DNA of 57,614 bases, the filler included, from Dirinaria sp. TL-2023a (Eukaryota): NCBI GenBank assembly GCA_051941275.1. It is 6 parts of 6 records of this genome, joined end to end, with 100 filler letters (N's around TTAATTAATTAA, not from the genome) between each part and the next. Parts side by side here need not be neighbours in the genome. Positions count along the whole stretch, not along the records: positions 38,511 to 48,013 come from JAVEBF010001042.1; 5 more parts are not named here. The stretch is one strand, 5' to 3'. The notes under the pieces are model-generated. The model saw nothing but the letters and a program-made list of their open reading frames with translations, was not told where the DNA came from and ran no database searches. Both the position numbers and the translations under genes were made by a program. Each line of letters opens with the position of its first letter. Positions within the stretch are counted from its first letter, which is position 1. Of the stretch, positions 5,294-48,747 are shown piece by piece.

Positions 5294-5490
5294 TGTCAGC
5301 GGATGGGTCTCAGTTCTCGTGACTGACAATTCGATCTCTTGACAGTATCGTCGATGTGACTTCATATGTCTGCTGACGCGATTTCTTCGCTCCTAATTCA
5401 TGGACACGACAGTGTATTTTAGTTCTGAATAGCTCTGTAGCAGAGTTACAAGTTCTTTTTCTCCTTGGACTACTGTTCCATAGATCAGGT
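5294..5490. mobile_element. Solo-LTR-like element, copy B (more mutated, right end unclear)
   Basis: Starts TGTCAG and aligns with 4199-4397, mostly with transition differences. Confidence 0.6.
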
Positions 5491-6399
5491 TTGAGAGAAC
5501 AATAGCTTGTCGTTCTAGCTTTGAGCTTAGAGATGAGTTGATTGAGAGAATTGATCTTTCTTTTTGATATCGTCGTTCGAGATAGCGATAGCAGATCTTG
5601 AATCTCCTGACTCGAAAGATGTAATCCGGGATGTAGAAGATGATCTCGATCCTTAGAGAAGGCATAGCCTAAAACTGTCTGGACAAGACACGTCTGAAAT
5701 CTAGGATGTCGCTTTGGCTTTCCTCTTCTGTGTCGCTCTTTAAATTAGCGTCATTGTATCTTTCTCTTTTGACTAATGATGTGGTTCGCATTATAAGAGC
5801 CAATGTCTGTCTTCGAGAAAAGATATAGCGGAAATTTTTTGGGCATCGAACAGGTAAAGTCCAATATACGAGTCTTTGTCTCCTCTTTCATGTTGCTGTC
5901 CGAGCTAGTAGCACTGTCTCTTGTTGTCCAGAAGATCAAATTTAAGAACAATGTCAGTCCTTGAAAGGTGATAGAGCTGAATACTTTTTAGCACCGCAAG
6001 CCTGGACGGCAGAATCCAGCTTTCAATCTTCTCCTTCTTCATGCCACCATTCGAGTAAGCAGCATCATATCCTCATTCTTTCAAGAGATACTAAGGTAGA
6101 CAATGTGAAAGAACTGCCTGTTCTTGGGAAAGGATATAGTGAATCTTTCTTAACATCACACATCTCTAATTCAGAATCCGGCTTTCGATGTCCTCTTTCG
6201 TATCGGTCTTTGAGTCAGTGTCACCATTCTTTTTCTTTAGGGTCGATCTGAGAGTTTTTGTGAGCACCGCACATCTGAAATTTATTATTCGAGAATCTGT
6301 TCTCTCTTTCATGTCGCTGTTCGACCTAGCGACATGATTTCTCGTCGAAGAAGCCTTGTCCAAGAAACTGTCAATTCCTGAAAAAAGATGTGACCAAAT

Positions 6400-9300
6400 T
6401 CTCCTTGGTGACGCGAAATTGGTATGAGACTTTCAGTCTTCTTCTATCCACTCTAGGAATCACCAAGACCTAATTCTGTCGCCATAGTCGTGCGAAAAAG
6501 AAAAAGGGATGCTGTGTTTTGCGATGATGTGTAATGGGTATCGTAGATACTATAGTCGAGTTCAAATTGAAATTTCCTAATTGACTTAAGTAATTTCCGA
6601 AAAAGTTTCTCGGTTTCATAGTATACCAAAAACCAGGGAGCCTTAGAACTCTCTTGGGTCCCGATACGAGAGCTCTGATCGATCTGCCTTCTCTCTCTTC
6701 AACAGAAATCTTGAACAGTTGCGTGTTAAAGCTGTGATGCTGAGACAGTCCTGAGGCTTTTTGAAACGAGCATTACCGCTCATATCATATTTCCTCGAAA
6801 AGTTGTTGCAGCGTCGCATATTTTCCCTTGTAACTATGTCGCTGGTTGAATTAAAATCGACAGTAACGAGCTGGCATTAGAGCATAGTGGACGAATTTGA
6901 TATCTTCATGCTCATCAGACGCTTGTCCATGTATATCGTACACTTCTTGCGACTGCTTCTTGGAAAGCTCGAAGTCTTCCTTTTTTTATCGTAAATACTG
7001 ATCGTTTCTTCTTTTCATGCTCTGGGGGTCGGTTTCGATCTCAATTTATTCAAGATTTAACCTAGAAAGAGGGGGGTCTTATATGAATGTAGAACGAGAG
7101 AGTGATGATTGCTGTTGATCCTTCTTCTTGAGCTGATCTTTCTTTGAAGACTTTGCTCTTTTTTCCTTTCTCTTGCGCTCTGGGTACTTGTCTTTGCAGA
7201 ATTCTTCATCTCCTTTTTACGTTCTCGTATTCATCTTGAGATGTATTTGTGCACTTGGTCCCTAGACAGACTGAAGGCAGTTTAGCGTGGCGATTTCCTT
7301 TGAGAATTTTGCTTTTCTCTCGAAGTATGACCTCGAAATGCTCTCGTGCACTTTGTCTTTAAGCACAATTGCGGCAGCTTAGTCTCAAATTATCATTTGA
7401 TAGTCTTGCTTTCCTCTCGAGGATTTCATTTCAGGAGGCTGGCGCTTTATCGAGACCTCGATCGACGCATGCTAAGGGTTCGAACAGTTGAACTTCGCTC
7501 TACAGATCTCGACATCGTTGCGTCGCTTAAAGCTAATGTCAGTCCCCGAGGGAAAAAAAACCTAGATTCTATTCACGATATGTCCGTCTTGGTCCTCCTA
7601 GCGTCTCAAAGTCATTGTCATTTTGCTCGCATCAAACATAAGATTCAAGTTTCGAAAATAACAACAGCTCGTGACTTTCTATGTTTTTCGAATCAGACTC
7701 AGTTTCTGGAGATATTAGCCCTGTCTGTAGCACTGGCCCCAATTTGCAATGCTGTGTCTTGGAATAGTATTATGTGGGCATCGCAGATGGGTATGCTGAT
7801 GGAAAACTTCTTGTTTAGGCTGAAGAGCTTATAGTCCGAGGGATAACGGTGGACCAGATACTTTCTCATCGAGGTGTTGAATTTTGAGATTGGCACTGGG
7901 CTGGCTTCGGTATGAAATTCCCCCGGGGACTCTTTGTTTTTTCGCTTGTTCTCTCGGCCTGCTTCTCTGGCTAGCTCGTTGAGTCCTAGGGAGGTAGGCA
8001 AGTTCGAATAATATTTCGCTGAGTATATTCTTCGCAGGAAACATTTTCTTTCAGGGAATCCTTCATCCGCCTGTGTCTTTGATGTTGGACAGACGGTTTC
8101 AAGAAGGAGAAGTGAGATGTCTTTCCTCTTGAATCGCCATAAGAGTTCTTCCAAGCGCCTTCCGCTCGCCAGGGCTCAACTGAGATCCTTGAAGAGCGAC
8201 GCTTCTTAGCGTCCTATGCTCTGCAGAATCCTGAGCTGTCTCTTAAGTGAAGTATTGAATTGAAGCCTCTTGTGCAAGTTGCCTCTCTCAATTGTATTCC
8301 ACGATGCTGTCTTTTGAAAATGGTTTGGCATCGTGGATTGATAAGCGAGGACAAACTCCGAGACGATCAAAATCCTCGTAGCGGATTTCTCTTGAAGGCC
8401 CCTTTTCAATCTGTTTTCTTTGCTGTTGAAATATAGTGATCTAGGAAAGATACTGTAAGCTTTCCTGACTATCTGCTTAGCATGCGAGCCTGAAAGCTGT
8501 CATCGCTCTCATATTTGGAACAGTTGAGTGTGTCGGGACCACGGCTTAATTTTTCCAGCTCCTGGACCACATTTTATTTCGCTCGCCTTCTTTCTCTTGA
8601 TAACTCACTCTGAGTCTTGGTATTGATGTTGCCATTGCTATCCAAGTCGGACATTTAGAAAACTTTTGTGTGTCGCGACTGCGGATTCATTTTTCCGGTT
8701 CTGACAACATGTGTTCTTCTGTTTCTTTTTCATTTTTAAGTGTTCTACTCTGAGTTTGGCAACCGAGTTTCGGTACTGCTTTGTGGGCAAGATAGATAGA
8801 TGGTTTGATTTTTTTATTTTGAGAAGAGTATTCCAGAAAGAAGAATTAAGCTCTTAGGACTGATAGATGAATGAAGTATATAGAGGGCTTTCTGTAGTCG
8901 TTTGAACATTGAGCTTTCGATACTCTCTGAATTCATCCCGCCAGCATAGAGACTCGACTACGAAGTCATCGGCTCATCGATCTGTTGAGAGACCTCGATC
9001 TCGGTCGTTGATCGTTTCCAAGAACGTAAACTGAAACTCCAGGTGAGCATAAACTCCTGCATTTTCTCTTGAAACAGAAACATACCATCGAACCTTTCGT
9101 CGAGAGCTTCATCCTCCCTTCAACGGATTAGAGAGATAATTTAGCGTGTTCAGCGCTGACAAAAATCGGTTATGGACGCTTAAGGCTGACTGTACTGGGG
9201 GAAAGTAAGGAGGATTCTTTTGTCATGAATGCGACGGTATAACCAGATGTCGGAATTTTGAAAAAGATTTTTCAATGTCTCTTGAATTCTCTGGTCAGAG

Positions 9301-9543
9301 CATTCATTAAGGAAGAAGTAACACCTCTTTTAACCTCAATTAAGATGCGACTATGGAAGCTGTCATTCAATTCTGTTCAGTTTGATAGAAAACGCTTCTA
9401 TGCGCGCGTTCTCTCGATCTTAAAACAGAGATCTAAAATAAGTGTCTTTCAAAACAGAAGCTTCATCTCTGTCTGTCTCTTGAAGATGCAACGGTCGCAA
9501 AGTGACGCTGCTCGTGCTTTGAATGGCAGGTTTGCAGTTTCGA
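6400..9543 (-). pseudogene. Decayed coding sequence(s) of unknown family
   Basis: ORFs 8206-8409 and 7699-8154 are in the same minus frame and separated by two stops (..SIGR*EASLFKDLS*ALASGRRLEELLWRF..). Further stop-riddled protein-like frames run to the contig end. No family recognised. Confidence 0.45.
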
Positions 9544-9643
9544 NNNNNNNNNNNNNNNNNNNNNNNNNNNNNNNNNNNNNNNNNNNNTTAATTAATTAAN
9601 NNNNNNNNNNNNNNNNNNNNNNNNNNNNNNNNNNNNNNNNNNN
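9544..9643. other. Artificial contig spacer N44-TTAATTAATTAA-N44
   Basis: Exactly 100 bp with a six-frame stop linker; five identical copies in the window. Confidence 0.99.
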
Positions 9644-9743
9644 GTTGATGGGGGTGTGGGAGATGATGAATGAGAAGGAATTGAGATTGCATGTGGATCT
9701 GGAGGAGGTTGTTGAGAAGGTGGAAGGTGGGATGATTGGATAA
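9644..9743 (+). CDS. Possible 3' end of an unidentified gene (partial)
   Basis: Protein-like frame LMGVWEMMNEKELRLHVDLEEVVEKVEGGMIG* from the contig edge, followed by T-rich UTR-like sequence. Confidence 0.35.
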
Positions 9744-10231
9744 AGGTTACGGATTTCTGTGCCAGGTTTTTGTGTTTGTGATGGAGACCTCTTTACTCAA
9801 TGAAATGAATTTCTTAAGAAACGACAGCGACTTGACAGTTTGAAACAGTACATGGCATTCACTCGGCGTTTGAGACCCAAGTCACTCACCATGTGTCCAG
9901 TTTAGCCCCGAGTCGTGGTGATCCGCAAGCGACTGCAGTAAGTCCACTGTCTCTTTTTTGTGGAAGGCCAAAATATGGAATTCTAATTGCTCTCAGACTC
10001 ATCTATGCCATTCACATAATAGCTAATTTCAAATAAACATGCACCACGCTCAAAACGACCAAGATATCTTGATGATCTCTTATATCAGCGATTGGATGCT
10101 ATAGCCGTCAGCAGCGCCACGCTCGACGTTTCCATCGTCATTGCAAATCTTGTGCGGCAGCTCAATCTCCCCAGTTATCGCTCAGAGCAACAATACCTCA
10201 GACCTCGAGGGAAGCTGAGGGCATAGGTACT

Positions 10232-13095
10232 TTATCCGCTCGTCTTGGCGAAAACGAACGAGATGCGATTATCCTCATCCTTCAGCACATGGAGCAAGAC
10301 CTCGTCCTGGACCAGCGCGGCCATATTCTCATCCCGCGCGTCCCTATTATTGAAACCCGAAGTATCGATATGGGTGTACGCCATCAGGTTCTCCATCTTC
10401 GTCTCGCCGCTCTTGTGGCGAGCTTTCTGCTGGGCATCGTCTTTGATCTTCTGTTCTTGGGCTCGCATATCGACTTTGTTGGCTTTGATCAGGCCACGGC
10501 TGAGAGTTGATTTGGGAGGTAGATCGAATTCGGAGTCGGAGTCGGAGTTGGAGTTGGAATTGGAATTCACGGGCTCATCATCGTCAAGTACGGTCCACGA
10601 CCCTCCTTCGTCGGATACAGGAGCTGCATCCGACATACTGCGGCCACCGCAGGTGCAGCCTAGTAGATCGTGGGTCTGGCAGCTCAGGCCTTCGTCGAGC
10701 CTGAAGAGGTCGCGCAGCTCTTCTCGCGTGAAGTTGTTGCCTCCTCCTCCCCCTTTCTGCTCCATGATGTTGCTCGCCAAGCCCAGCTTTGTGACTTGCC
10801 GCTGCCAGATTTTCTCATCGATCCCACCGGCCATGACGAAGCGGTAGATGAAACACGGTTTCTTCTGCCCGTCGCGGTGGATGCGCGCCATGGCTTGCTG
10901 GTCCGTTGCAGGATTCCAGTCCACATCGAATAAAATGAGCCGCGATGCGCCGATCAGGTTCAGGCCCATGCCCCCCGCTTTGGCGGAAAGGAGGAATGCA
11001 AAGCATTTGGAGGCTGGAGTTCGGTTGAAGGTGTCGACTATCTCCTGGCGTTTGGAGGACGGAGTACTCCCGTCTAGACGGACGAAGGAATAGTCGAGAG
11101 AAACAAGAAGAGTCGATAGCAGATCCAAGGTGGAGGTGTAATTGGATACGAGAACTACTTTCTCCAACGTTGTTGTACGTAGGGTATGCAGGAGCTGATC
11201 CAGCGCCCGAAGCTTGGTTGCCCCAGCGTTCGTATTCAGAAGATGAGGCGGAATTTTAGATACAAGCGAAGCCGTCATCGGACTTATAGACGCAGAAGGA
11301 TCCTTGGGGTTCAGCAACGACGGACTGTTGCAGACCTTTTTCAGTATTGTGATTAATTGCAGGGAGGCTTCGGGATTGCCCAAAGCGGTCTGAAACGCAG
11401 GATCGGCTAGAACACGGTGATATACTGCTGTTTGGTTCGCGGTCGGACGACATAAGAGAACATATTCCGTCTTAGGCGGTAGATATTTCGATAAAACCTC
11501 AGCTGTTCGACGCAGAATGAAAGGACTAGTGAGCGATGCCAGTTCTTCACTCCTGGCTTCACCTAGCTCGATTTCTTTCTCTGTCGCTTCAGGTTGCCTA
11601 CTTCTTATTATCGGCACTTCGAATTGCTGTGTAAATTTCTTGAAACTTCCCAATAGATCCGGATTTACGAAATCCACCATCATGAAGAATTCGCTGAGGT
11701 CGTTCTGGATCGGTGTTCCTGAAAGAATAACTCTCCTAGCAGTATTCAATGCTTTAATGGCTTGGGCGCTTTTGTTTTTTGCAGTCTTGAGGCGGTGACC
11801 TTCGTCAGCGATGACTATGTCGATTCCTGCACCCTTCTTGAGCTCTTCCTGCACCGTACGAAGCTTCTCATAGCCAATGACCATCACATTGTAGCTTCTG
11901 CCCATAGTGAAATCCGTTAGCCGCTTTTTGTTGTCATCTGCTACGAAGACACCGATGCGTTCCGCACCGAGCCACTTTCGAAATTCCTTCCGCCAATTGT
12001 TGATCAGCGTCACCGGACAGACGATGAGAGCTTTTTTGATGACCGGTGAGTCTTCATGGACTGGATTTTGTTTCAGAAGGGTCCAAAGCAGGGCAATCGT
12101 CTGCAATGTCTTGCCCAAGCCCATCTCATCTGCCAGTATAGCCCCTTGTCCATCGAAGTCTCGCATGCCCATCACACATTCGTATAAGAATTTTACACCA
12201 TCGCGCTGGTGTTCCCGAAGATGCTGGCTCAGTATAGGATCCACTACCACGTCGACGAGCTGACGGCCTTTTGGAGCCGACCTTGGACGTTTCATCACGA
12301 GAGCATTCGATGCTGTCGGGTCATGACGCGGTGTTGGCTCTTCTTTGCGCTGCACGGGAATACTTGTGCTCTGTAGAACCGGATTTCTGTAGCTAGCCTG
12401 CGTGCCTAAACTCCGCGGAGCTGTGACGTTCTGCGGCCTCTGGACGGTCTCTTCTTCAAGGCCTTTCGTCCTTCTGGAAGAAGGCACAGATGGACGTATT
12501 GGCTTGGGCAGAGTCTGTGGAGGGGCCGGTTCTGCTTTGTGTGGAAGCTTTTTACTCGATGTGTTCAAGAATGGTCGACCAGCCAGATAGTCGCTTTTTG
12601 ACAGCATCGAATCCACTTCAACCTCCTTACCGCCAATTGACAACGAGGACCCCGGAAGCAGAGGAGAGTCACATGGTGCCCTTCCCATATCCTTCCCCGA
12701 TATATCCTGCAAACATGCGTAGCCATTGTTAACGTGCAGCACGCCGTCGCCATCCCAGGTCTTATGCTTCTTTGCGGTGTACTTGCGCCTTCTCCACAGT
12801 CAGCTTTGCATCCAAAACGAGTTGCATATCGTCTTGTTGACCATAGGACGTTATAATGACCCTCTACACACTCAGTAGGTCTTGCGAGACCTTCTACTGC
12901 AGGGTTCTGTACCGCTGAAAAAGGTTTCCGTGGAAGAGAAGAGATCCCAGGCTGTTTGAAGATGAGTTGTGGTCCGAAACTTTCCGGTACTACCTTGTGA
13001 TTACTGCGTCGCCTTTTGGCCGGAGGCTGGGCAACATCTTCATCTTGCAGGTTTACAGGTCTTTGCAAGAGAGGAGAACGAAAAGGTTTGAACAT
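10232..13095 (-). CDS. RDH54: SNF2-family DNA translocase Rdh54/Rad54B
   Basis: Motifs GAILADEMGLGKT, DEGH, SGTPIQNDL and QAMARIHRDGQ. N-terminus MFKPFRSPLL...YNVLW/RKYTAKKHKTWDGDG is typical of Rdh54/Rad54B. One intron at 12789-12841 (GT..GCTGAC..AG) joins the two ORF-track frames. Confidence 0.93.
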
Positions 13096-19185: not shown

Positions 19186-19285
19186 NNNNNNNNNNNNNNN
19201 NNNNNNNNNNNNNNNNNNNNNNNNNNNNNTTAATTAATTAANNNNNNNNNNNNNNNNNNNNNNNNNNNNNNNNNNNNNNNNNNNN
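19186..19285. other. Artificial contig spacer
   Basis: N44-TTAATTAATTAA-N44. Confidence 0.99.
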
Positions 19286-28804: not shown

Positions 28805-28904
28805 NNNNNNNNNNNNNNNNNNNNNNNNNNNNNNNNNNNNNNNNNNNNTTAATTAATTAANNNNNNNNNNNNNNNNNNNNNNNNNNNNNNNNNNNNNNNN
28901 NNNN
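28805..28904. other. Artificial contig spacer
   Basis: N44-TTAATTAATTAA-N44. Confidence 0.99.
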
Positions 28905-31078: not shown

Positions 31079-34000
31079 ATGGGCTCCTATACTCCCGGCA
31101 CCACACCTCTTGCCGAAGACAGCGGCCTTGATTTCCCTGAACCGACCCAGACCCTTCATCAGATCTTGACCGAATCCGCTCGCCAGCACCCCGAGAGGAT
31201 CGCTCTTGTATCGTGCGATCAGCCATGGGACCTACTACCCTCACCAGGTCATGCGCAAGAAACCGAGAAGGGAGGTTATCTGCGTTGGTCCTATGCGCAG
31301 CTTGAAAGCACATCGGATATTCTCGCCTCCTATTTTACCAAGAACGGAATTAGCAAGGGAAACCCTGTGGTTGTTGTGCTTTATAGCTGTGCTGAATGGG
31401 CCTTGTGTTTCTGGGCCGCTGCAAAACTTGGATGTCCATTCGTTCCTATCAATCCCGCTATTGTGAGTAGAGCTACTGAAATACAGCACATCTTAAGTGC
31501 CTTGGGCAAAGTCGGTGCATTGGTTGTCAACGATGAGTCAATTGCAAAGCTGCTTTCAAAAAACGCTTCACCAGAGCTGTACACCAGCAGCATCAATTTG
31601 ATTCTTGGCGGCAACGCATCGACCGCGTGGACAAGGTTCAATGATGTCTTCGTAACGCCAGATCTTCCAAAACTCTCTGCAGCCGAACAAAAAATGGAGG
31701 ATGTGGTGCTCATCGTTCTCATAAGCGGTACAACTGCCCTTCCGAAAGGATGCCCGCAATCCAACAAAACCGTTGCCTCCATGTGCACGAGACACAGAAT
31801 CATGTATTCGCTTGACGAGAGACGGATATCATGCAATCACATGCCGTTGTTCCACTTTGCTGGTGTCATGGAGTCGCTCTGGGCTTGGGCTCATGGAGGC
31901 ACTGTCGTATATCCCAACAGGTCATTCGATGCTCGCGCAACGCTCGATGCTATTGACAGTGAACACTGCACAGATATGTGCTTGGTTCCGAGTATGCTCC
32001 GTGCAATGGTCGACCATCCCGTTCTACCAGCCAGGAGTACAGACTCGCTAGGTCTCATCAAGCTTGCTGCCAACGATGTGATGGGCTCCGATGCTCGTGC
32101 TTGCTCTGAGACCCTGCGTGCTAAAATCGTAACAAACTGCTTCGGTATGACGGAGACTAGTGGCATGACCGAAATCTTTGCCTGGACAGACGGTGTGTGC
32201 AAAGACTCTGAGCCGTTTCCCGCTGGCCGCATGGCTCCTGGTGCCAAGGCCCGTATCTGTGCTCCGGGCTCACGCGACCCTCTGAGAAGAGGAGAAATAG
32301 GTGAATTGCATCAGGGAGGCAAAACGATCACTGACAGATATATCGGTGGTGACGATGATGTTTCCAGCTTTTACACGGATCAGGCTGGCTCATGGCACGT
32401 TTCCGGCGACCGAGCTGTCATGGCCGTAACGGGAGAAATATCCGTTTTGGGGCGTTACAAAGACATAATCAACCGGGCGGGAGAGAATATCTCACCTTCG
32501 ACGATGGAGAGAGTTTTGGATGGAACCGAAGGTGTCCAGTCTTCCCAGGTTGTTGGGGTGCCTGACGAGGTCGCTGGAGAGGTTCCTGTGGCCGTGATCA
32601 AGATGATCAAAGATAGCTCGGTTTCCAAGGCTTTGCTTTACGATCGCATAGTCAAAGAGCTAGGGGTTGCATTCGCCCTCGAAAGAGTGATAGACTTCAA
32701 AGACCTCGCAATCGATGACTTTCCCACCACGGCCACAGGCAAAGTCCGTAAAAAGGATGTGAGGCAATTAGTACTGGATCATCTGCAATATGAATCAAAA
32801 GCTTCGACTCGGATGTCTGCTCGAGAGCCAACCGAAGCTGCACTGGCTCGCATTTGGGCCCGTTTTTCTGGCGTTGCAGAAAACCAAATATCCCTAACAA
32901 GGTCGTTGGAAGGGATGGTGGACAGTGTTACTGTCATGCGTTTTCGAAGCCAGGTGAAAAAGGAGCTTGGGAAGACACTCAGCCTTGAGGAGCTGAATAG
33001 AAATCCCACAATCGTAAAGCAAGCGGCTTTACTCGACCGCCAGCAAGACACCGCATTGCAGGGAAGCAGCGCGATGTCTGAACGTGTACGCGATGGGCCT
33101 CCCGGATTGAGCGACCTTGTACACGCCCGAGGTAACCAAGCCGCATTCGATCAGGTTCGGAGAGAGGCTGAGAAAAAGTTGCATGCCTTGGGCCTCTCCT
33201 GGGATAAAGATGTCGAAGAGGTCCTGCCGATTTATGACTTCCTCCAGTACTGGGGAGCGACCACGGATTCTATGATTTTCAGGATCGCCTTCGCATGCGC
33301 CAATGCATCCACCAGCCAGTTGCGCTCTGCGATGGAGATTGTGCTCCCTCAACATGGAATGTTACGAACCATACTCGTCGACAGTCCCTTGACCGGCCCT
33401 TCATGGGTGATGATACGCCCCAGCAGTCACTGGTTCAATTTAACAATCAAAGATGGTGGAGCTGTTAATGAACCAGAGGATTTACTGACCACCGATCTCA
33501 CCAACCTAGAGGCGGGGCCCTCCAAGCCGATACCGCTGTTTTATGTAAAGATATAATTCATCGAGGCCACCAAGACTGCTGGTTTCGTTGCGTATGGCAA
33601 TCACTCATCTTACGATGCCCACTCCATTCTTTCCATCTTCATCGACGACCTCGGAAGAGCCTTGAACAATCCGGTTGCAAAGCTTCCATATCGACCGGCG
33701 TACAGTCTCTTTGCAAATTCATATTACAATTATCGTACCTCGGTCCCGGCTCAGCTCAATCTCGATTACTTCACTTCGCGCCTTAGAGGAATCGCGCAGC
33801 GTCGGGGCGGTCTGTGGCCCCCGGAAACATTTCAGTCGGTGAATGGGACCCCAGCACGGACACCTGATCAACTGTTGCTGAAAGGGAACATCACGCCAGG
33901 CCTGGCGGGAATCGCGAAACATATCAAGCTCGACATGGGCAACAATCAGTACCTCAAAGTTCACAAAATCCCCCACTCCGTCGCCATCAAAGCCGCCATC

Positions 34001-34576
34001 GCCATCTTCAACACGCAGCAGACCGACCACCCGTATGCCTTCTTCAGCAATCTTCAAATGTGCCGCTCCTACCCGTTTATTGAGCGCCAAATCGCTGACC
34101 GCCTGCCTGACCCTATGGACATGCCCGGCGCCACCATCGAGGTCTCCTTCGACAACATCCACCTCGGCCCCACCGAGCCGGTTTCGACTCTTCTACATCG
34201 TATGCATGCTGATCAGAAGGAAGACACGGCTCGCGCGCAGTTCCCAATGCTAGGACTGCGCGATCAGCTCGGAGAAGAAGACGGCGCCTTCCTGGCCGAG
34301 GTGTTGCGGCGACAGGCAGTCAACTACAACCCCGTGGTGACGCAGGACCCGAACGCGACGTTGCAGAACCTGCAGTTTGCAGGCAACGCCAACCTATCGT
34401 TCATGTGGTGGTGCGGGATGGTCGATGCGGAGACGGTGCAGATGAGGGTGACATGGAACGATGAGGTTTTCGGGCCCAAGGACGCTGAGATGGCGATGGA
34501 TGGGTTTGAGAGGAATATGAAATGGCTTGTGAATGGGGAGAATTGGGACAAGCCAATTGGGGAGTGCGATCGTTAA
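31079..34576 (+). pseudogene. NRPS-like A-T-C enzyme (acyl-CoA-ligase-type adenylation domain) interrupted by one in-frame TAA at 33554-33556
   Basis: ANL motifs ISGTTALPKG, FGMTETS, SGD, GRYKDIINRAGENISP and PTTATGKVRK; carrier-domain VDSVTVMRF (Ser at 32924-32926); condensation-like NHSSYDA at about 33599-33619. ORFs 31079-33556 and 33662-34576 share one frame with no other stop. Confidence 0.8.
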
Positions 34577-38410: not shown

Positions 38411-38510
38411 NNNNNNNNNNNNNNNNNNNNNNNNNNNNNNNNNNNNNNNNNNNNTTAATTAATTAANNNNNNNNNNNNNNNNNNNNNNNNNNNNNNNNNN
38501 NNNNNNNNNN
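38411..38510. other. Artificial contig spacer
   Basis: N44-TTAATTAATTAA-N44. Confidence 0.99.
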
Positions 38511-40553
38511 GTATATATCTTACTCACTCGACTCTTGGTTTTCAGAAGTTGCTCTCGCTCTCGACTGGCGAATACTTCTTTTCTTTATCCTTTCCTTTCC
38601 TTTCTTTCACAACAATAAAAAAAAAAAAAAAAAAAAAAATCGAAAGGATCAGGGATGTACGAGTTGAATGGTTCCAACGAGAGAAACTAAGGAAAAGATG
38701 TATGTTTGGATACCACATCAGGAGGGGCTCGAAATTATTTGAGTCAGGGGTTTTTGGACCTATTCTTTTTTGAGGAAGGCGGGGAGCCGGCCGGGGGAGG
38801 GGTTTGACGCTTTGAATCTTTGATAAGGTAGATAGGTCCGTAGCGAGGGAAGGATGCGCATCTATGATATCTATTTATGTTTATGTGTCTGGAGCGTTTC
38901 TGATTGGCTTTTTTTTCCCTTTCGTTTTTGATCATTGGATATTAGATCAATAGAGAGATCTGTGTGGTATACACTATGTTCAATTCTCGTAACGAAATCT
39001 TCCAGATCTTCGAGTTTGATTCGTGTGGTTGGTTAATAGGGATGCTAAATATGTTCCGCTCGCCCTGACTTCTGTATCATACCCCATACAACTATAGCAT
39101 ACATGAATACCTTGGTTTTATTATCTAATTTCCCTTTCTGTTTTTTTTTTTTTCCTTTCTTTTTCATTGATTGAAGATGAACATTCGAAACAGAAAACGT
39201 ACTGTCGAAGAAAAAATGACTCGATTTGTCACGCAGACATTAACAATGAAATATTTCGATTTCTATTAAGATTATTGTCTTATGAATCATGGAATGTAGC
39301 TCAATATTAAAGTACAAATTGAATCGCTAGTGTCTGAAGTAAGACAGATAAATTCTAAAGTGTGACTTTGATGTAAAATGACGTATAATAAGCTCGGCTT
39401 TTCGATAAGGGGGTAGAATGGATAGGGTAGTGAGGAGTGTAACCGGCATTAAAAAGGGTTTTTCAGAAGTATTGAAAAAGAGGAGGATTTTTAGATTTGA
39501 TCGCTGTACTCAAGGGTGAGCATGCACGAGGGAGGTTTGGTTCCGGGCTCAAGTTGTGAAGTTTAGGAGAAAATTCTCTAAGGGGAAATCAGAAAATAGT
39601 GAGCGGAACGGGAGGGCTTGGAATTTCTTTGGAGATATTTTGGATCACCAGTGGATTGACTCGGGGAGGAGGGGTTTGACAAGGGACATTTTGGCGACAG
39701 TCTTGATAGTAAAGATTTTCGTGAGTATTTCTCGATATATGTAGGCTGCATATACAATTTTTGACTTTTTCTCTTGGATAGCTCGCGCAATGAGATAACG
39801 ATGATGAGGGAGTATGGATTTTAGCTAATCTTTCTTTGCTGACGGCGACTTTTTGAGTCAGTGGAGGAGGAGTATAGCTGAGGTAGAATTTTGATAGCTC
39901 TTGAGTAGAAGGGAATGGATTAGCTAAATCAAATATTAAGGATAAGAAAGGCGGTGACGAGGAGTAAGGAGCTACATCAGACAGAGAGAGTGCTATGAAG
40001 GGAGATTAATGTTGAATGAAAGAAAAGAGGGGGGAGAAGCTGAGGTTGTAACATTTGACAAAAAAACTGTCTACCTCCCCGCCCTTTTTTCAGAACTTGC
40101 ATCAACATCAATCGAAATCTAGATTTGAAATGTTAGTTCTATAATAAACTTTTCTCTCGTTGTGTACAACCCATATGTCCAAATTTTCCCCCTTCAAAGT
40201 CATATTTGCGCTCGTGTATTACTACCTGCATACTTGAAAGAGAGACCATCGCGATCTTTCTTCAAAAAAAATGTATTAAAAAAATTAATTCTCGTTTCTT
40301 TCTACAAACAGATTTTAGTTGTGCGATCAGGAGGGTTTGATCCAGGTAAGAAATCAGCGTCTTGGCATTGTCATGTACATTATATTATTTTAGTCACAAC
40401 CCCTCAAACCCTCCCAACAGTTCTAACTTCACTGTCATCAAAATTGGTCAATTCCACGAAATGTATACCCAACACATACATTCCACCAGACTATCCTCAA
40501 ACCGCCGCGCACCTCTTGCAGCAGCCTTGCGGGGAAGAGTGAATACCGAAGAA

Positions 40554-41628
40554 ATGTCCGAACCTTTCTATCCGACGCGTCGGCGGAGTGACACCCCGCT
40601 AGGTTTTCTCGACCTACCACTAGAGCTTCGAGTCGAGGTCTACAGTCATCTTCTCGTGGTATCTGATCCAATCATAGTCTACTCAGGCGCGTCAAATACA
40701 AGCCCAAAGGAGGACACCCAAGTACGAGATGGTTACCGAAGCATTGTGCAAACAACTGAAGAACGGACGAAGACCGAATATGCTATTGTTAAGTCTTTCA
40801 CTCTAGGCCTTCTAGCGTGCAGCAGACAAATCTCGGACGAAGCTGGTGCTATCCTGTACGGGCGCAATACTTTCAGTTTCAAAGGGCAAAATACTTGGGA
40901 TGCCCTCTACATTTTCCTCCAGATGCTTTATGTAGAAAACAAGGATCGCTTGCACAGTCTTGAGATCGATGTCTCTATTCCAAAAAGATTATGGCGGTCG
41001 GCTGACGGCATTTGCACCACTTTAGAGGATCGATGGAGTCTTCGAAAGGTTGTCGCCCGACCAACTTACTTGCAGGATTCTCCCAATCTACTCGGGGAAG
41101 GCTTTGTAGAACATTTGGATCCGGCAATAGAAGCGTGCTTTCGTAGCCTCAAGGGCAGAAAGTCGCCCTTGACATTGACATTGAACCTACAAAGGTTCTA
41201 TCTGCCCGGATTGGAAACGACTGACGACGCGTACGACGACGCCTTCCGTTGGGAAGTGAGCTTGCCAGCCAGTAAGTGATTTCGGATCTTCCACATCCAT
41301 TTTCGCTACTCTTACTCATTCGATACACCTGAATAAGAGTTTCCCTTTGCGCAACGCCGATTATCTCACGCCTTGCACTGCAAGAAGTTTACTGATACTG
41401 AAGCATACCACAGTGATTGAGAAATGCAGACGCGAACTCATCACAGATGACATTGCTAAAAACCCAGTGGATATCATATGGCAGGGTCAGTGCGAAAGGG
41501 ACTTATTTTTGGAACAGCAGCAGCAGCTTCAGGATACCGGATGGATTATACTTGACGCCAAAGAGAGCACCACCCTTTGGGCAGGCTTTAACGAAAAGAC
41601 CATGCGTTTCAGCCTACGGTGGAGGTGA
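40554..41628 (+). CDS. Hypothetical protein with N-terminal F-box-like (LPxExRxxIY) motif
   Basis: FLDLPLELRVEVYSHLL...LLACSRQISDEAGAILYGRNTFSF is a common fungal F-box-like module. Intron 41272-41413 (GTAAGT..ACTGA..CAG) joins in frame to the 41347-41628 ORF. Confidence 0.75.
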
Positions 41629-42687
41629 CGGCGGAGAAATTTCGATGGAAGAGCCCTCAAGAAATCGCTGAGCACTTCAACGTGTCTGTAATCCGACCTG
41701 CAATGTACTTGATATGAAAACGACGATTAACGCTGGCTTCATAGGTGCTGTCCAGTAGGACACGCGCAAGATCCTAGGCGGATCTCCTATTCCATGGTCT
41801 GGTGACAAGGTACCACAGGAAGTATATCTATGAGCTTTCACAGAATAATCGATTCAGAACTTCCAAGCTTGTTGTCTAATTCCTTTCATTCAAAATTGGG
41901 GGAAGCTATTGGGCTCAGTAAACCTACACACGGTTAATCGAACCTACAGTATGATGCTTGTCAGGGTAACATACAGCATGATATCCAGTTTGGATTGCAG
42001 TCCAAGAGGCGTTATGACAGGTAGCAAGGTAGGTAATATGGGAAATAGCCTAGTGAGCAGTATGACAAATAATCTGCTACATAGCATGACAGACAGTATA
42101 AGGATCTTCTTAAACAACCGTTTCACTCTGTCTGCTATTATGACCACGACGAGATGATGGACAGATAGAGAGGACATCAGTGATCTCAGACTACATGTAC
42201 CTAGAAGATACTCATGTCCAAAAACAAATATTTTTTTTTTTTGAAGCTCTATATAAAATTACGATGTCCAATTAGGATTTGAAATTTAGATTGTAGTTTT
42301 CCAGCTTTGAAATAAGGCGCAGTCCACCAAAAACATTCCGTCGAGGCAGCAAACAGATAAATTAGACCTCTATCGTGTATCAGGAGACTTCTTTTTTCTC
42401 GTGGCATGACAAATTAGCTAGAAACCCTGTGACGTTGCCGAAATATACACTCGACTCGAGACGAAACAGATTATTGAAATCATCGATATAGCTCTATGCT
42501 AATGTTGAAACAAGTTCATATTCAAGATCATTGATTCCGGGTGGTAGAAACATTGGAGTGGTTGACTTGTATTGGGTGCTGATTTTTCGGGAAGGAGATT
42601 AATCATGTACAGAGATCTGGCCTGAATTCATCGATTGCTCGTCATCCTTCATTATCCTGGCTCTCCTCCGCTAACTCCTTCACTGTC

Positions 42688-43851
42688 TCAATCTGTACCC
42701 CACTTGGTAATAGTATGATAGGTACGATGGAGCTCATCCCTTGTGTGGTGGGTCTGAGGATCTCGCTTATGGACTTTTTTCGTGGCCTCGTTGTACGAGA
42801 AACAGGTCGTGTTTACTGCCTTCGAGCAAAGAGGATAGACTATACGCTCCGTCATGTCGCAGAAGAGCTCCTCGATCATCGAAACGAAATCCGGGCCTCG
42901 AGAGTTGGGATGCTCGCAAAGGTGCGCCGCGCTGTGCTCTTCATGGTTGCTGATCACAAGGTGTCCTTGGTGTGCGTGCCTCGGCGTCGATGTCCCGGTG
43001 GCTGCGGAATAGACCTGACCCGTAGCAGTGCCGTTTGGAGATGCGCCCTCAGTAGTGGCCGTCGGGTACGGCGGTTGCGATTCTGGGTGGTGAATCCGGG
43101 AAACTCGGTCTCTCCTCCCCACGCTATTCGGCGGCGGTCCAGAACCAACTCGCGCACCGTCATCCAAGCCCCCCGGCACTTTGGAGTTGTGGTTGCTGGT
43201 CGTGGATGCCGAGAACGAGAACGCCTGGTCGCAGTACGTGCTCGTGACGTTCGGAGAGGTCGCGTTGGCCAGGATGAATTCCATATCGACCGAGAATTCT
43301 TCCAGCGGATGTTTCTTCCCCTTCCCACCATCTATCCACATGCAGTTGGGTCGGTAGGGCTTGCCATCCGATGTCTTGCCCCAATACGAATTCGAGAAGT
43401 ACCAATCCTGATCGCACATCTCGCCAAAATCGCCGGTCCAGCCGGAAAACAAAGTCTCCATCCAAAAGAGCTCGATCCACTGAACGCAGACCGCGTCCGA
43501 GCCGCCTTGCTGTATCATCAGTTCTGTGGCTTGGATATCGCCGTTGCCACCGCTGTTGTCCAATATGGTGGCGGATATCTCTCCCTCCTTCATATGGCTC
43601 GGCATGTGCCCGGTCCCGATATACCTCCCCGTTACGTCGTAGCCGCTGACGACGAGTCCATCACCGCCGAAACTGTTCTGGTCTCCACCAGCGAATATAC
43701 CTACACCGATCTTGATTAAGCTGTTACCGCCACTACCCGGAGTGCTGCCGAGGCCGGTTTGAGTGTCCCGCGCTAGATCGATTATCTTTGTTACTGCCTC
43801 AGTAGCGGGGCCGACTAGAGCGATCGCACCTTCTACAGCGGCAAGGGCCAT
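42688..43851 (-). CDS. Cys-rich, probably extracellular hypothetical protein (387 aa)
   Basis: Long GC-rich ORF. Beta-type domain (DAVCVQWIEL..WTGDFGEMCDQDWY..RPNCMWIDG), S/T/P linker and C-terminal SAAHLCEHPNSRGPDFVS..LFCDM..PLC module that I recall from uncharacterised fungal secreted proteins. Signal peptide is weak. Confidence 0.75.
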   Translation of the reverse strand: MALAAVEGAIALVGPATEAVTKIIDLARDTQTGLGSTPGSGGNSLIKIGVGIFAGGDQNSFGGDGLVVSGYDVTGRYIGTGHMPSHMKEGEISATILDNSGGNGDIQATELMIQQGGSDAVCVQWIELFWMETLFSGWTGDFGEMCDQDWYFSNSYWGKTSDGKPYRPNCMWIDGGKGKKHPLEEFSVDMEFILANATSPNVTSTYCDQAFSFSASTTSNHNSKVPGGLDDGARVGSGPPPNSVGRRDRVSRIHHPESQPPYPTATTEGASPNGTATGQVYSAATGTSTPRHAHQGHLVISNHEEHSAAHLCEHPNSRGPDFVSMIEELFCDMTERIVYPLCSKAVNTTCFSYNEATKKVHKRDPQTHHTRDELHRTYHTITKWGTD

Positions 43852-45536
43852 GATAGACGGTAGAAGAGTTATCGATTAATGAAGTAAAAGAATTGAAAAT
43901 TGGGCTCGGTTTGATACTTGCGCTTGCGATTACTAGACCGGCTAGCTTTTTAAATTAAAGGATAAGACGCTACGATTAGGGGATCTTCGAGCAGCGTAGG
44001 TTCCTAGACCAGCTAGGTTTGAAAGTAGTATAAATCGGTTTTAGATGGAGATGCAGTCATAATGTCTCAACGAGAGTAGCGTTCATATATACCTCGAAAG
44101 TCTGGGATCTACTGCTGGGATATTACTGAAAAAGGGCATTGTATGACAACTATGTCATATAGCAAGGAGTGTTTCATTCAAAGTGCAGCGTCGCAAATTA
44201 TCGATAATTCTGCCTGCGAGCGAAAGTATTCTATTGGATTTTGTTGCGTTTGTAGCCTTTACTGGTTTCGAACGGACGGTCGATAGAAGGCTTAGAGAAC
44301 ATGAAACTGGGGACGTTGTGAAAAACATAGATACAGAGTCAAAATTCAACATGTGATGCAAAGCTGCTCGATTGATATCAATATCTTGGATTGATAATCC
44401 TCCACACCCGGATAGAGAGGTTTTGAATTTTAGTCGCGCCATTTCTCTGAAGCGTGTTTTAGGAATGGACTTTTGTAACGACGAGAAACGTAAAGCAATT
44501 CTGTGTTTGAAATCCGAGGTTTCGAGGACAGGGTCGCGGCACAGGGGCCAAAAAGAGCTCGTCTCAAACTGTGCCGTGACGGTTGCCTACTGGCGGAGCC
44601 CATCCTCTTCAAAGTTGACTGTGGTCCAAGAGCTACGCCGTCCGAGCCTTTCGAAACATTCTTTCCGCGACGCATCTGTCACAGAGGCGATGCCGCTTGG
44701 GAATCCGTAGGCCATCGGGCAGGATCAAAATTGCCGCCCCCTAACAGCATGTGATATACCATCTATTACCTTCAAGCAGCCACAAACCACCTCCAGACTA
44801 CCCGTATACTCTGTTTGATACAGAGGTATCGAGTTCTGGATCGCGCGTACAGGGGCTTGTATCGCCTCTTGCGCCGATGTTTGTATCATATTCGTTCCGA
44901 CGTCGTCCAGATCATATATGCGCGTATCGACAGTGACGTAGAATCTTCCCCGGTTTCTACTCTATATGGAGAGACCACTCCTAGCAATCTTCAAGCGGGA
45001 ATTTGAGCCTATTGCGATGTCGGATTTTCACATATCCTGTAGTGCACATCCAGGATTTGACCCAATAGGCTCCCAAACATGTCTCCAATCGTGCTGAACA
45101 TAGGAATCGACGCAGGAAAGCTGTTGCAGTCTTTTTTTAGGTCTTCCGTTGGCCAGCCGTAACTCAATTGAATTGCAACATTAGGCGTAAATCTCCATTT
45201 TCTATGAAAAAAACCAGTACGAGGCATTGCGATTGTCATTCCGTATTGTCCAGTCCTTCTCAAAGTGTTGGAGCACATGCAATGAAAATTCTGTTGAACT
45301 AAATAGATGGCGGCTAACGACTAGTCGGTTCTAATTGCACCTAAGGGAAGTGATCATGCAAATCTCTTCTATTTCTAATGTTATGCGTGCAAATTTTCGA
45401 TCTATTATTCAAAACCAGACATCCCACCCAACGAGAATTGAGAGAGTGGTCTTCATTTTCGATTGTTAATCTTGTAACTCAACAGCTTTGCAAGATCGTT
45501 ACCACAATTTAGAGGTAAAAACCTTTTTATCCACCA

Positions 45537-46931
45537 CTAGTTTGTACCGAGTTCAAGCAACTCGGCAGTGCGTCCAGCGCACTGCTGTCTGGGACGATAC
45601 TCTGACAAGCCTGGAGAAAAGTTATGATTAGATATCGCTGTCGCCATCACGGAATTATAGTAGCAAGGGAACTTTCTCACCGTTTTACACAAATCACCGG
45701 CTTTGGACATGTCGATACTAGCTGCCTTGGCTCGCGCAGTGGCTACTGCATTCGGATCTTCTGGATTTATTGGGGCACCCGTAGTAGGTGCTGCAGACTG
45801 ATATGGCGGGTCGATATGGTAGCATCCCCCAACGACGTAGCAATTCATATGATCAACGCTACCGGTACTGCCCAACTCTTCATTGCAGGCCTTAAAACCA
45901 GCAAGGCACACTTGTGTGCAGTTTTTCAGGATGGAGGATGCATCGACCGGGCCTGTTGGTGTTGGCGTCGCGACTTTGGATGGTGACTGAGTCGTGCTTG
46001 TGATCATGGATGATAGAGAGGAAATGGTGGAGTCATCGCCAGGAATAGATGCTGTAGAGAAGCTGGAGAGGCTGGTATCTGACGAAGTCCCACCAGTGGC
46101 CTGGATGGTAGCTGAACCAGTGCCCGTGGATAAAAGAGTTTGAAATGTTGTCAGAGGTCCTGAGTAGTTCAGAGGAACAGCGATATCGTCAATCAATGCT
46201 GGACAAGATTCACCTGCTGCCAATTCGTCGTTGAGACTTCTTTGCTTGTGCGTCGTTCCTGACCCATGTGGTCCGAACCATTTAACCCCCCAAGCAGCTA
46301 AGAATTCTTGGCAGCCCCATTCAGTTTCACGACCAGTGCATGCTTTCTGATGGATTGCTGGCTCTTCGCCATTGCCGAATCCATAAGCTATAATTGCACC
46401 TTTTTCCGGGCTTGGATGTGCATGTCTCTCGGGATTTTTGCTAAAATATCGGATCGCGCAAACAACTTCCGCGCAGGAACCCTTCGTCCGGTGTAAGGAA
46501 CTTGGTGCCCCACTTGCAACAGCTTTCTGGTCCGCTTCCTTCAGTAGCTCACGGACTTGCTTAGGAGTTGTGTCTTGGTAACCAAAGTTGCTGCCTTTGC
46601 CATACCTTGTAGAAGAGGCATAGTACATCATCGCGTCCTGGGGGATCCAGAGAGCGGCCATCATCGATGGCAATCGTGACCTTTTATCTTCGGCTTTGCC
46701 CTGGCTTTCTCGCGTCCAATCATCCACCATTTCGTCCCAGGCTTGCTTCACCAGAGGCAGGATTACGGCCTCCGATATACCCATATCTTTGTATTGCTCC
46801 AAGGATTCTTCGCCAGCGTAGTACACGAAGTTGCTGTCCCTCACTTTGTTGAGAACCTGTCCATACACCAAATTGAATCCACGCGGCCACAATAAGAGTG
46901 TGGCTAAAATTATAGCGGGTATCAGACGCAT
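45537..46931 (-). CDS. Secreted protein with putative deaminase-fold domain, S/T-rich linker and Cys-rich C-terminus
   Basis: Signal peptide MRLIPAIILATLLLWPRGFNLVYG; HRTKGSCAEVVC (CAE at 46467-46475); IIAYG strand; ACTGRETEWGC (46311-46343). The CDS is well supported; the function is inferred. Confidence 0.75.
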   Translation of the reverse strand: MRLIPAIILATLLLWPRGFNLVYGQVLNKVRDSNFVYYAGEESLEQYKDMGISEAVILPLVKQAWDEMVDDWTRESQGKAEDKRSRLPSMMAALWIPQDAMMYYASSTRYGKGSNFGYQDTTPKQVRELLKEADQKAVASGAPSSLHRTKGSCAEVVCAIRYFSKNPERHAHPSPEKGAIIAYGFGNGEEPAIHQKACTGRETEWGCQEFLAAWGVKWFGPHGSGTTHKQRSLNDELAAGESCPALIDDIAVPLNYSGPLTTFQTLLSTGTGSATIQATGGTSSDTSLSSFSTASIPGDDSTISSLSSMITSTTQSPSKVATPTPTGPVDASSILKNCTQVCLAGFKACNEELGSTGSVDHMNCYVVGGCYHIDPPYQSAAPTTGAPINPEDPNAVATARAKAASIDMSKAGDLCKTVRKFPCYYNSVMATAISNHNFSPGLSEYRPRQQCAGRTAELLELGTN

Positions 46932-48013
46932 ATTGGTCACCTAGACAATTGCAAATAAAAACTTTGCCCGCAGAGCAAATAAGCCTTCCAGAGACAGTGA
47001 AGAGTTGTAAAAAGGATAGATCTGACTAGTAAAGAGTTGTTAAAACGATGAAACCCAAGGGTAAGAGACCAGCTCCTCAGTTTCTGAAAATCGAGCTATG
47101 AACAAAAGACAAAACACTAAACCACGTCAAAACCAGCATTTCTGGATTATATATGATTGAGAGAAGTGGAAAAAATGAACTACAGTCCTGACCAGCTCAT
47201 TTTGTCGTCATAAATGCAACAGAGAACTGCATGCGAATGTAAAAGTCAGTCTCCGCAGCCTTGAAACATTACAGCGTAAGCCTTGACCAATGCGATCAGA
47301 ATGGTGTTCCTAAGGTCTGGAACATGGATATAATATTTTTATCGCTGACTTGTCTTGTTCAAAAGATCGTCCGGAGATCCGGTGATGAGTTTCGGCATGA
47401 AACGCATATGCAGTGAGCGTTTTATATCGAGGGAAAGGAACATTGGGCGAAGCTTCAGCGGCGGAGAAGATCTTATGCCTGGGTTAGATTTAGAGTCCCC
47501 ATCTTCGGCGAAAGATTAGGCGTCTAAGTATCATATCTTTTGTTTCCAAATCGAGGTCTATGAAGCTTCAAAGTGCGCAAGCGCAGGTTATTCAGTTACC
47601 CCCGGCCGTATTGACACTACCTTGTCTCTTAAGGATGATAATCGAGTTTCTCCTGAATCCTTTGGATCTCTGCGACAAGCATCCCTATTTGACTTGTTAG
47701 CCTTGACGGTATTCTGAATTAACATCCACGATTGCCTAGGCTGTTGACATAGCTATCCCACACTTGCCAAGGCTCGAAGCATCGTCCATGTTTCGCCTGG
47801 AAACACGGAATCTTCCCCGAGCCGTGTCAAGGCTGAGGCACAACCTAATACATGTTTCCGGATGTCGCAGCTGGCAAGGGTGGCAAGGCTTTCAAAACAA
47901 CATTGGACGGAGCATGAACGCTAGCTTACGACTGTAGCATTAAATTAAGGTATGGGTAATTAGCGTTTCGTTCTTACGATCGGCGTGTTGCTGCTCTGAA
48001 TCAGGCGCGGTGC

Positions 48014-48113
48014 NNNNNNNNNNNNNNNNNNNNNNNNNNNNNNNNNNNNNNNNNNNNTTAATTAATTAANNNNNNNNNNNNNNNNNNNNNNNNNNNNNNN
48101 NNNNNNNNNNNNN
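48014..48113. other. Artificial contig spacer
   Basis: N44-TTAATTAATTAA-N44. Confidence 0.99.
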
Positions 48114-48747
48114 CGCAGCAACGAGCATGACTTCATTCTTCGCAAATAAAGAATACCACTCGCGCATGATCTTCTCGTCAGACAATACTCAATACACGAC
48201 TGCGCGCGATCGTCTTCAGGCCGCAAAGACTGAAGACATCGTCGGCATCATGCAAAATGTCTTAGAGTTCATGCGCTCGGCGGCGCAGCATTTCCAGCAA
48301 GCGACAAAGGATCAGACGGACAAGCATCGCAAGAAAATCGTTTATAAAGTCGGTGATCAGATATTTCTATCGAGTAAAAACATAAACATCGATAGATCAT
48401 CAAAGAAGCTGAAAGACAAAATGTTAGAATCGTTTCTCATAGTTAAACGTCATGACATCGTTTATGAACTAAAGCTCCCTGATACGATGAGAATACATAA
48501 CGTCTTTCATTCAAATCTTCTGCGCAAGGATCTCGGTGACCCCTTATCTGATCAGGTTCAAGAATCTCTCGATAAAATAATAATCGATGAAGACGATGAA
48601 TGAGAGCTTGCAGATGTGATGAACTCACGGTGATATCATGAACGTCTACAATATCAATGTCAATGAGTTGATTGAAAGCATCGCGATAGAACATGATACA
48701 ATACTGATGACGGTGAGTTTGAGCATGCAAAGAATATAACTAATGAC
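48114..48747 (+). mobile_element. Mutated Ty3/Gypsy (chromovirus) pol relic: integrase C-terminus (GPY/F) and chromodomain
   Basis: TSFFANKEYHSRM (cf. TPFFANxGYHPR), YKVGDQIFLSSKNI..RSSKKL.DKMLESF (cf. RPSKKL..GPF), YELKLPDTMRIHNVFHSNLLR, then E*ELADVMNSR*..RLQY...*VD*..D..*Y with Trp codons turned into TGA. Confidence 0.92.

Follow-up and report, generated by a model that had tools for sequence, protein, structure and literature searches.

In the stretch of DNA analysed here (the window, 57,614 nt in full, from Dirinaria sp. TL-2023a, GenBank:GCA_051941275.1), a minus-strand gene designated D is predicted to encode a secreted zinc deaminase, and a homologue of its neighbour, designated X, was found beside a deaminase gene at each of three loci. 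We read D as a candidate nucleic-acid-directed antagonistic effector belonging to the C-terminal-hairpin division of deaminases (cytidine deaminase, CDA; blasticidin S deaminase, BSD; and YwqJ), and put the probability of this reading at about one half; that D is an active enzyme appears likely. Because D and X are conserved neighbours, the pair may be a fungal weapon, not described so far, that is directed at microbes nearby. The window joins six contigs from a 27.7-Mb fungal assembly, with N-tag-N spacers between them, and the host is probably a lichen-forming fungus. Gene D sits on contig C1042 (GenBank:JAVEBF010001042.1), window positions 38511-48013, and was divided as follows.

45681..46931, minus strand: exon 1 of gene D (codons 1-417), from the reading frame and splice signals
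45611-45680, minus strand: predicted phase-0 intron of 70 nt, from splice signals and homologue tails
45527..45610, minus strand: predicted last exon of D (27 codons, two Cys, then stop)
46857..46931, minus strand: predicted signal peptide (residues 1 to ~25), from hydropathy
46266..46856, minus strand: deaminase-fold domain (residues 26 to ~222), from the AlphaFold2 model and structure comparison
46467..46493, minus strand: H147-x5-C153-x-E155, i.e. the invariant His, the first predicted zinc ligand and the predicted catalytic Glu
46311..46340, minus strand: C198-x8-C207, predicted zinc ligands 2 and 3, with a loop inserted where CxxC is expected
46239..46247, minus strand: K229-Q-R231, at the position of the KR/RR (Kex2-type) site of most tailed relatives
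45927..46145, minus strand: Ser/Thr-rich linker (residues 263-335; S 26%, T 21%)
45681..45926, minus strand: Cys-rich tail, exon 1 part (six Cys, NP[EQ]DP motif)

The AlphaFold2 model, which covers residues 26-228, scored 91.6 in the predicted local distance difference test (pLDDT) and had a predicted template modelling score of 0.90. Its elements were, in order, an N-terminal hairpin, helix 1 (23 residues), strands 1-2, an inserted helix (residues 124-139), helix 2, strand 3, helix 3 and strand 4, with 13 residues between strand 3 and C198 and the last core strand at residues 217-219; no helix 4 followed strand 4. Comparison of this model with 48,161 chains by VIA gave BSD (3oj6) as the best match (Z 9.5, root-mean-square deviation 2.9, 108 aligned), followed by three cytidine deaminases (Z 7.8), and of the 23 chains listed at Z 5.0 or above, 20 were named as a deaminase or a deaminase base editor; no YwqJ structure was among the listed chains, so this ranking could not favour YwqJ. 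BSD was also ranked first by Foldseek, at a non-significant E of 0.07, and nothing in PDB or BFVD reached an E of 0.001 or better in that search. When the family profile was compared with PDB sequences, BSD was again the best match (E 2.4), sharing H-x5-CxE and only the core from the His to the Cys; a phmmer search of PDB sequences returned a single chance match. The CDA fold proposed in the original prediction is thus borne out by the model, and it is very likely that D has this fold together with a zinc site. The site itself we infer from conservation and from the alignment of all four of its residues to the known site: H147 and the CAE of D align with their counterparts in BSD, and C198 and C207 with the PCxxC of YwqJ and CDA. 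The strands MMAALW, MYYASS and AIIAYG, the H-x4-SCAE helix start and A-C198-x8-C207 noted earlier were all found in the sequence, the strands also in the model.

A two-sequence profile search of 1.84 billion representatives (E of 0.001 or below) detected 69 proteins including D. For site analysis, 51 of the 68 relatives were aligned with two domains from the Dirinaria genome itself (53 sequences), the other 17 being fragments, a mis-predicted paralogue copy or carriers of long inserts. H147, C153, E155, C198 and P88 were invariant in all 53 and C207 was kept in 52; the profile that found the homologues itself contains the site residues, and part of this invariance is built in. Judged by its conservation, the site motif is more than chance, because it is invariant across homologues that have only 18-47% identity to D. 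Two peculiarities raised originally as reasons for caution proved to be family traits: the residue before C198 was Pro in 46, Ala in 6 and Gly in 1 of the 53, so that the Ala of D is a tolerated variant, and the long spacer between C198 and C207 was 7-16 residues in 52 of 53, 8 being the commonest length. The middle residue of CxE was Ala in 21, Gly in 30 and Ser in 2, and the first position of Gx[CH]xE was Gly in 36 and Ala in 17, D having GSCAE. As for the earlier doubts whether the fold would be CDA-like, the Glu conserved and the Cys free of disulfides, none was upheld by what was found: the fold came out CDA-like, and the Glu and the three Cys were conserved.

Pfam scans of D, its domain and the 68 relatives gave no significant match, and NCBIfam models gave only scattered single matches (E above 0.04) on the 53 members. 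Nine of the 20 clusters looked up carried names; all were hypothetical or uncharacterised, and ascomycete where an organism was given. The named relatives came from Toensbergia (two), Heterodermia, Lecanora, Bisporella, Rhexocercosporidium, Botryosphaeria, Aspergillus candidus and Peziza, with Lophiotrema added by a separate search, and the clade of D (11 members, support 98/92) included Heterodermia aff. obscurata and Lecanora helva as its named members, so that the nearest named relatives are lichen fungi, in agreement with a lichen-forming host. In the Atlas, 21 unnamed clusters scored at least 0.9, the two best listed being Ascomycota. As sampled by these searches, the D family is unnamed and widespread across filamentous ascomycetes (lichen fungi, Leotiomycetes, Dothideomycetes, Aspergillus and Peziza). 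The Dirinaria genome itself carried one D paralogue, on contig C1629, with 30% identity and a hydrophobic N-terminus and cut by the contig end; a weak match, L003, was rejected as a family member. Word-index searches returned only D itself or two relatives already known. Bacterial members were not found in the genomes searched, which is not proof of absence: none of 14 motif-pattern matches over GTDB was in frame, and the family profile matched none of 401 genomes sampled from one phylum, a scan with no positive control. No match on plasmids was found.

Among the described deaminases compared here by profile, the YwqJ clade gave the most extensive sequence likeness. The family profile aligned with that of nine actinobacterial YwqJ domains by hhalign at 92% probability (E 6.6e-7, 112 columns), the match spanning strands 1-2, the inserted helix, GxCxE, strand 3 and both Cys, whereas the control profile of 14 tetrameric CDAs gave 21% over 51 columns and a gene X alignment gave 0.1% against YwqJ. 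In the reverse test, scores above 5 bits were given by the YwqJ profile to 7 of the 53 fungal domains and by the CDA profile to none. The three best named Atlas clusters (0.83-0.85) also carry YwqJ, a lead only, and together with the profile match this agrees with the YwqJ likeness noted originally. The core of D ends after strand 4, as in the YwqJ truncation, and D also has the insert that separates strand 3 from the two Cys in that clade; Gx[CH]xE in helix 2 is listed as a trait of the YwqJ clade in Table 1 of PMC3239186, in the available part of that paper. There were also differences. YwqJ domains (PF14431) are carried by LXG or RHS proteins, whereas D has a predicted eukaryotic signal peptide; YwqJ has CxxC or CxC (CxxC in all nine bacterial domains), whereas the D family has C-x(7-16)-C, in 52 of 53 members; the inserted helix is present in D with the invariant H147, which lies six residues before the first Cys, whereas the invariant YwqJ His lies earlier, before that helix, at the HP position; and the eukaryotic YwqJ members listed by Iyer et al. 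2011 are, in the available part of PMC3239186, basidiomycete only, whereas the D family is ascomycete. No neighbour of the Imm6 or SUKH type was seen beside D, unlike YwqJ systems.

Compared with BSD and tetrameric CDA (3oj6, 2z3g), D shares the core fold and the three-Cys site with CxE; the H-x5-CxE spacing is common to D and BSD, and CAE in helix 2 is as in the CDD/CDA and BSD clade. D differs in being predicted as secreted, in its added N-terminal hairpin and inserted helix, and in its linker and Cys-rich tail; the PCxxCR of BSD/CDA helix 3 was not found in the D family, and no fifth core strand, corresponding to BSD/CDA strand 5 with its terminal Glu, was present in the model of residues 26-228. 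As a side observation, no match to TIGR01354 (tetrameric cytidine deaminase) was found in the Dirinaria genome, for which introns or incomplete assembly may be the explanation.

The reading frame of D, at the coordinates given in the original prediction, runs from 46931 to 45537 on the minus strand and would give 464 aa if unspliced. This end is probably wrong, since a predicted 70-nt intron, overlooked at the time and canonical in its donor, branch and acceptor, would join a short last exon to the gene. The spliced product would be 444 aa with its stop at 45527. The predicted last exon resembled the tails of homologues P0007 and P0010 (5 and 18 of 1000 shuffles as good), its likeness to the P0016 tail being unclear (203 of 1000), and the unspliced tail showed no likeness to any of these three (796, 473 and 938 of 1000, in the order P0007, P0010, P0016). 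The exported and modular build claimed for D agreed with our results, i.e. a hydrophobic N-terminus, with hydropathy as its sole basis (best 9-residue value 3.01), a domain, a linker that is 47% Ser plus Thr over residues 263-335, and then a Cys-rich tail. By the same crude hydropathy test a signal-like N-terminus was present in 46 of 68 homologues; several of those lacking it are truncated gene calls, P0007 having one upstream on its own contig. The tail domain had no Pfam match and is single-copy in the Dirinaria genome; its NP[EQ]DP motif occurred in 8 of 68 homologues, and the tail did not map to one clade of the family tree (4 changes).

The suggestion that the domain is tethered through a mucin-like linker has to be amended, since 14 of 18 long-tailed relatives have KR or RR right after the domain, compared with 7 of 35 short-tailed members and a background of 22 of 103 windows. 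This dibasic site in most tailed relatives points to processing. Cys flanked the post-domain region (WC before, Cys after) in 6 of 16 long-tailed members; Cys on both sides of the nick region is the layout of nicked two-chain toxins. For D itself processing is uncertain because it has KQR in place of the dibasic site and lacks the first flanking Cys. Pairing of the extra Cys in the family was not significant (p 0.34), which helps neither a catalytic nor a scaffold interpretation. The yeast killer toxins K1 and K28 are secreted precursors, processed by Kex2 at a dibasic site and encoded by viruses; D family members are likewise predicted secreted precursors, with a dibasic site in most tailed relatives and flanking Cys in several, but are chromosomal.

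The neighbour that accompanies the deaminase, likewise overlooked originally, is the following.

42688..43851, minus strand: partner gene X (387 aa), next to D, with a homologue beside the deaminase at 3 of 3 loci that had usable context

X consists of a hydrophobic or amphipathic N-terminal helix, a beta-rich Cys domain, dibasic sites and a C-terminal Cys domain, with eight or nine Cys, N-glycosylation sequons and two or three dibasic sites, and had no significant Pfam match. The X-family proteins inspected (L032 147-1115, L048 8612-9999 and L021 1983-3149) started with a short Ala/Val-rich amphipathic helix and contained sequons and dibasic sites, with neither a classical signal peptide nor a significant Pfam match. 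An AlphaFold model of X (three sequences) reached a pLDDT of 37.7 only, and the fold search was uninformative (best Z 4.0); four chains that we take to be PLAT-domain-containing were at the noise level (Z 2.6-2.9).

The D-X pair was present at the window locus, on C1629, where an X paralogue with 44% identity (E 1e-103) adjoins the second deaminase, and on the metagenome contig L050 (GenBank:JAABUP010008569.1). Of the 49 pattern matches from the metagenome scan, 2 were confirmed, one of which, L051, turned out to be a chance opposite-frame match in a bacterial gene and was left out of the linkage count. On C1629 and L050 the two genes have a divergent orientation, and in the window they lie in tandem. 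Between C1629 and L050, D had 41% and X 57% identity; between the window and either of these, the values were 29-30% and 43-44%, and by these identities the divergence of D and X is congruent. The linkage is well supported in a small sample. Four X matches were found in the Dirinaria genome, of which the two close ones adjoin the two deaminases.

It was also noticed that a tandem repeat (L021 1003-1327, period of about 16 codons in the listed reading frames) lies between the divergent D and X of C1629. On L050, an AT-rich region (5001-12984, TpA/ApT 1.2-2.1) resembling the product of repeat-induced point mutation starts right after the deaminase gene. Surroundings of this kind are common for fungal effector genes.

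Beyond X, a non-secreted gene with an F-box-like start, designated Y, was found at all three loci. The window copy, Y', is as follows.

40554..41279, plus strand: gene Y' (DUF7730/2EXR-like, no signal peptide; Pfam DUF7730, E 3e-7)

It probably contains an intron, for which GTGAGC (41256) and GTAAGT (41272) are the alternative donor-like sequences, followed by another exon inside the open reading frame at 41347-41628. The Y genes of C1629 (L021) and L050 had 41% identity (E 6e-16). Y is thus clearly related at only 2 of 3 loci, and its membership of the cassette is tentative. The closest paralogue of the C1629 Y in the Dirinaria genome was a 597-codon open reading frame (L054 1221-3011, contig C2081) with two matching stretches; neither D nor X was found on this 3.3-kb contig.

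Several observations weigh against D as a nucleic-acid-directed effector. BSD, a small-molecule enzyme, was the top match by structure, by Foldseek and by PDB sequence, and a BSD-like bacterial protein scored 11.7 bits on the family profile versus 10.8 for the best YwqJ. PF14431 matched neither D nor its 68 relatives nor anything in the Dirinaria genome, and only 14 of 53 members, D not among them, had a His close to where the inserted helix of YwqJ begins. Although Bacillus subtilis YwqJ is reported as a toxin that deaminates cytidine in single-stranded DNA and depends on its Glu, other enzymes of the YwqJ family had shown no activity on DNA when screened earlier, both according to the available part of 10.64898/2026.09.29.755374. 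The catalytic domain of D has no net positive charge (26 Lys plus Arg, 26 Asp plus Glu), its Cys could oxidise in the secretory pathway, D itself has KQR and no dibasic pair after the domain, and X has no classical signal peptide. The linkage comprises three loci, two of them in one genome and all of a close subfamily, and the two distant X copies of the Dirinaria genome, one on a 1.2-kb contig, had no deaminase nearby in the adjoining DNA. Y' matched the C1629 Y only at E 8e-4, as a distant relative, and is one of a family of which the same genome contains at least 28 copies. Because there is no PF14431 match and no CxxC, because the YwqJ His is present in 14 of 53 and because BSD is a serious alternative, we class the D family outside YwqJ itself, as a YwqJ-like family in its own right within the hairpin division.

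That serious alternative, the chief rival to the effector reading although we regard it as unlikely, is that D is an extracellular BSD-type deaminase of small molecules, disabling cytosine nucleoside antibiotics produced by nearby bacteria or freeing ammonia from extracellular nucleosides, with its tail anchored to the wall or matrix and X a co-regulated wall protein. It needs no cell-entry step, and BSD was best by VIA (Z 9.5), Foldseek (E 0.07) and PDB-sequence profile (E 2.4), with equal H-x5-CxE spacing, a BSD-like protein also heading the single-sequence scores. However, the sequence likeness to BSD is confined to the core from the His to the Cys, whereas the match to YwqJ also takes in the strands and the inserted helix; the structural ranking had no YwqJ structure to favour; and the model of D stops after strand 4, without the C-terminal part of CDA/BSD. 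Fast divergence and variable loops by the site would also seem more typical of conflict enzymes, following the available part of PMC5889660.

Two further explanations accept the secretion and differ in what D does. D may be an active nucleic-acid deaminase that enters no other cell and acts, outside cells or in the secretory pathway, on extracellular DNA or RNA or on that of viruses, its link to X being co-regulation or an old duplicated block. The fact that 35 of 53 motif-complete members are stand-alone secreted short-tailed domains with no visible delivery module is in favour of this, and the same roles have been proposed for animal SNADs, the secreted AID/APOBEC-like deaminases (PMC5889660, available part); we consider it decidedly unlikely, as the D-X linkage has survived an orientation flip and 30-45% divergence, more than would be expected of a passive duplicated block. 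Alternatively, D could be a non-catalytic secreted protein that has the deaminase fold, holds its Cys in disulfides and acts by binding, as the oxidising compartment, the long and variable Cys spacing and the extra Cys of many members might indicate. The invariant set, an odd number of Cys plus Glu and His at zinc-site positions, makes this improbable, and inserts between zinc Cys occur in other deaminase clades according to the available part of PMC5889660.

If D is the nucleic-acid-directed effector preferred here, it would enter the secretory pathway and take up zinc through C153, C198 and C207, E155 serving as the proton shuttle and H147 helping to bind the substrate. A nick may follow the catalytic domain in the tailed lichen subfamily; binding to the target surface may fall to the Cys-rich tail, to X or to both, and the amphipathic N-terminal helix of X may aid entry. 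The catalytic domain would then deaminate cytosine in nucleic acid of the bacteria, fungi or algae of the thallus; single-stranded DNA, the substrate of Bacillus YwqJ, would be the most likely target and RNA the other candidate. The non-secreted Y would be a weaker candidate for self-protection. In its fullest form this would make D-X(-Y) a chromosomal polymorphic A/B-type deaminase toxin of lichen fungi, in which nicked D is carried into neighbours by a membrane-active X and mutates DNA or RNA while cytoplasmic Y restrains it at home; as a whole we hold this form only as a doubtful conjecture.

Related systems have been described in eukaryotes. The SNADs are known from animals and slime moulds (Krishnan et al. 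2018, PMC5889660, here and below from its available part), and at a slime-mould locus secreted deaminases stand beside MAC-perforin genes. As predicted for D, they combine a signal peptide with a zinc deaminase, and they have inserts between the zinc Cys in some clades; compared by description, they belong to the AID/APOBEC group with HxE and to the helix-4 division, whereas the D family has CxE (53/53) and falls in the hairpin division. Polymorphic-toxin domains have moved into fungi, as stated in the available part of PMC3482391, and fungal OTT_1508-like and ascomycete DYW-like deaminases are fast-evolving, of bacterial toxin origin and proposed for conflict (PMC3239186, available part). These deaminases, as described there, carry alpha+beta or ankyrin domains at the N-terminus and show GxxK or HxEK motifs, none of which D has, and that part of the paper does not describe them as secreted. 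Our literature search, with supplements and subscription journals outside its scope, found no description of an ascomycete secreted deaminase family or of a D-X pair. In a term search, the word deaminase was absent from the main text of the fungal and lichen secretome papers PMC9816061, PMC9447291, PMC13127573, 10.1101/2024.08.16.608140, 10.64898/2026.09.03.749242 and 10.64898/2026.06.16.732702.

Elsewhere in the window, two features on contigs other than that of D were noticed. A Tf2-like retroelement fragment (48127-48603) lies on the other side of a spacer from gene D, and a gene with an AMP-binding domain and a phosphopantetheine site, resembling a nonribosomal peptide synthetase, lies at 31079-34576. 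Elements across spacers are not necessarily adjacent to gene D, because the window joins separate contigs; the spacers are at the following positions.

9544-9643, 19186-19285, 28805-28904, 38411-38510 and 48014-48113: N-tag-N spacers

Deaminase toxins are established in bacteria, and secreted deaminases have been predicted in animals and slime moulds. Members of the D family have only hypothetical-protein annotations, and Pfam has no model for them. Should they act on nucleic acids, they would be a new class of mutagenic enzyme in the fungal secretome and would make it possible to ask directly how lichen fungi control their microbiome or photobiont; base-editing screens would gain at least 69 compact and diverse deaminases whose zinc loop is unusual. 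How secreted enzymes of fungi get into other cells is an old question, and the conserved X offers a way to approach it. Should the BSD-like alternative be true, D would be a new extracellular enzyme that inactivates antibiotics or scavenges nitrogen. Should D, X and Y together be a toxin, eukaryotes would have a counterpart to the toxin-immunity loci of bacterial deaminases, and two unnamed fungal protein families would receive a first function.

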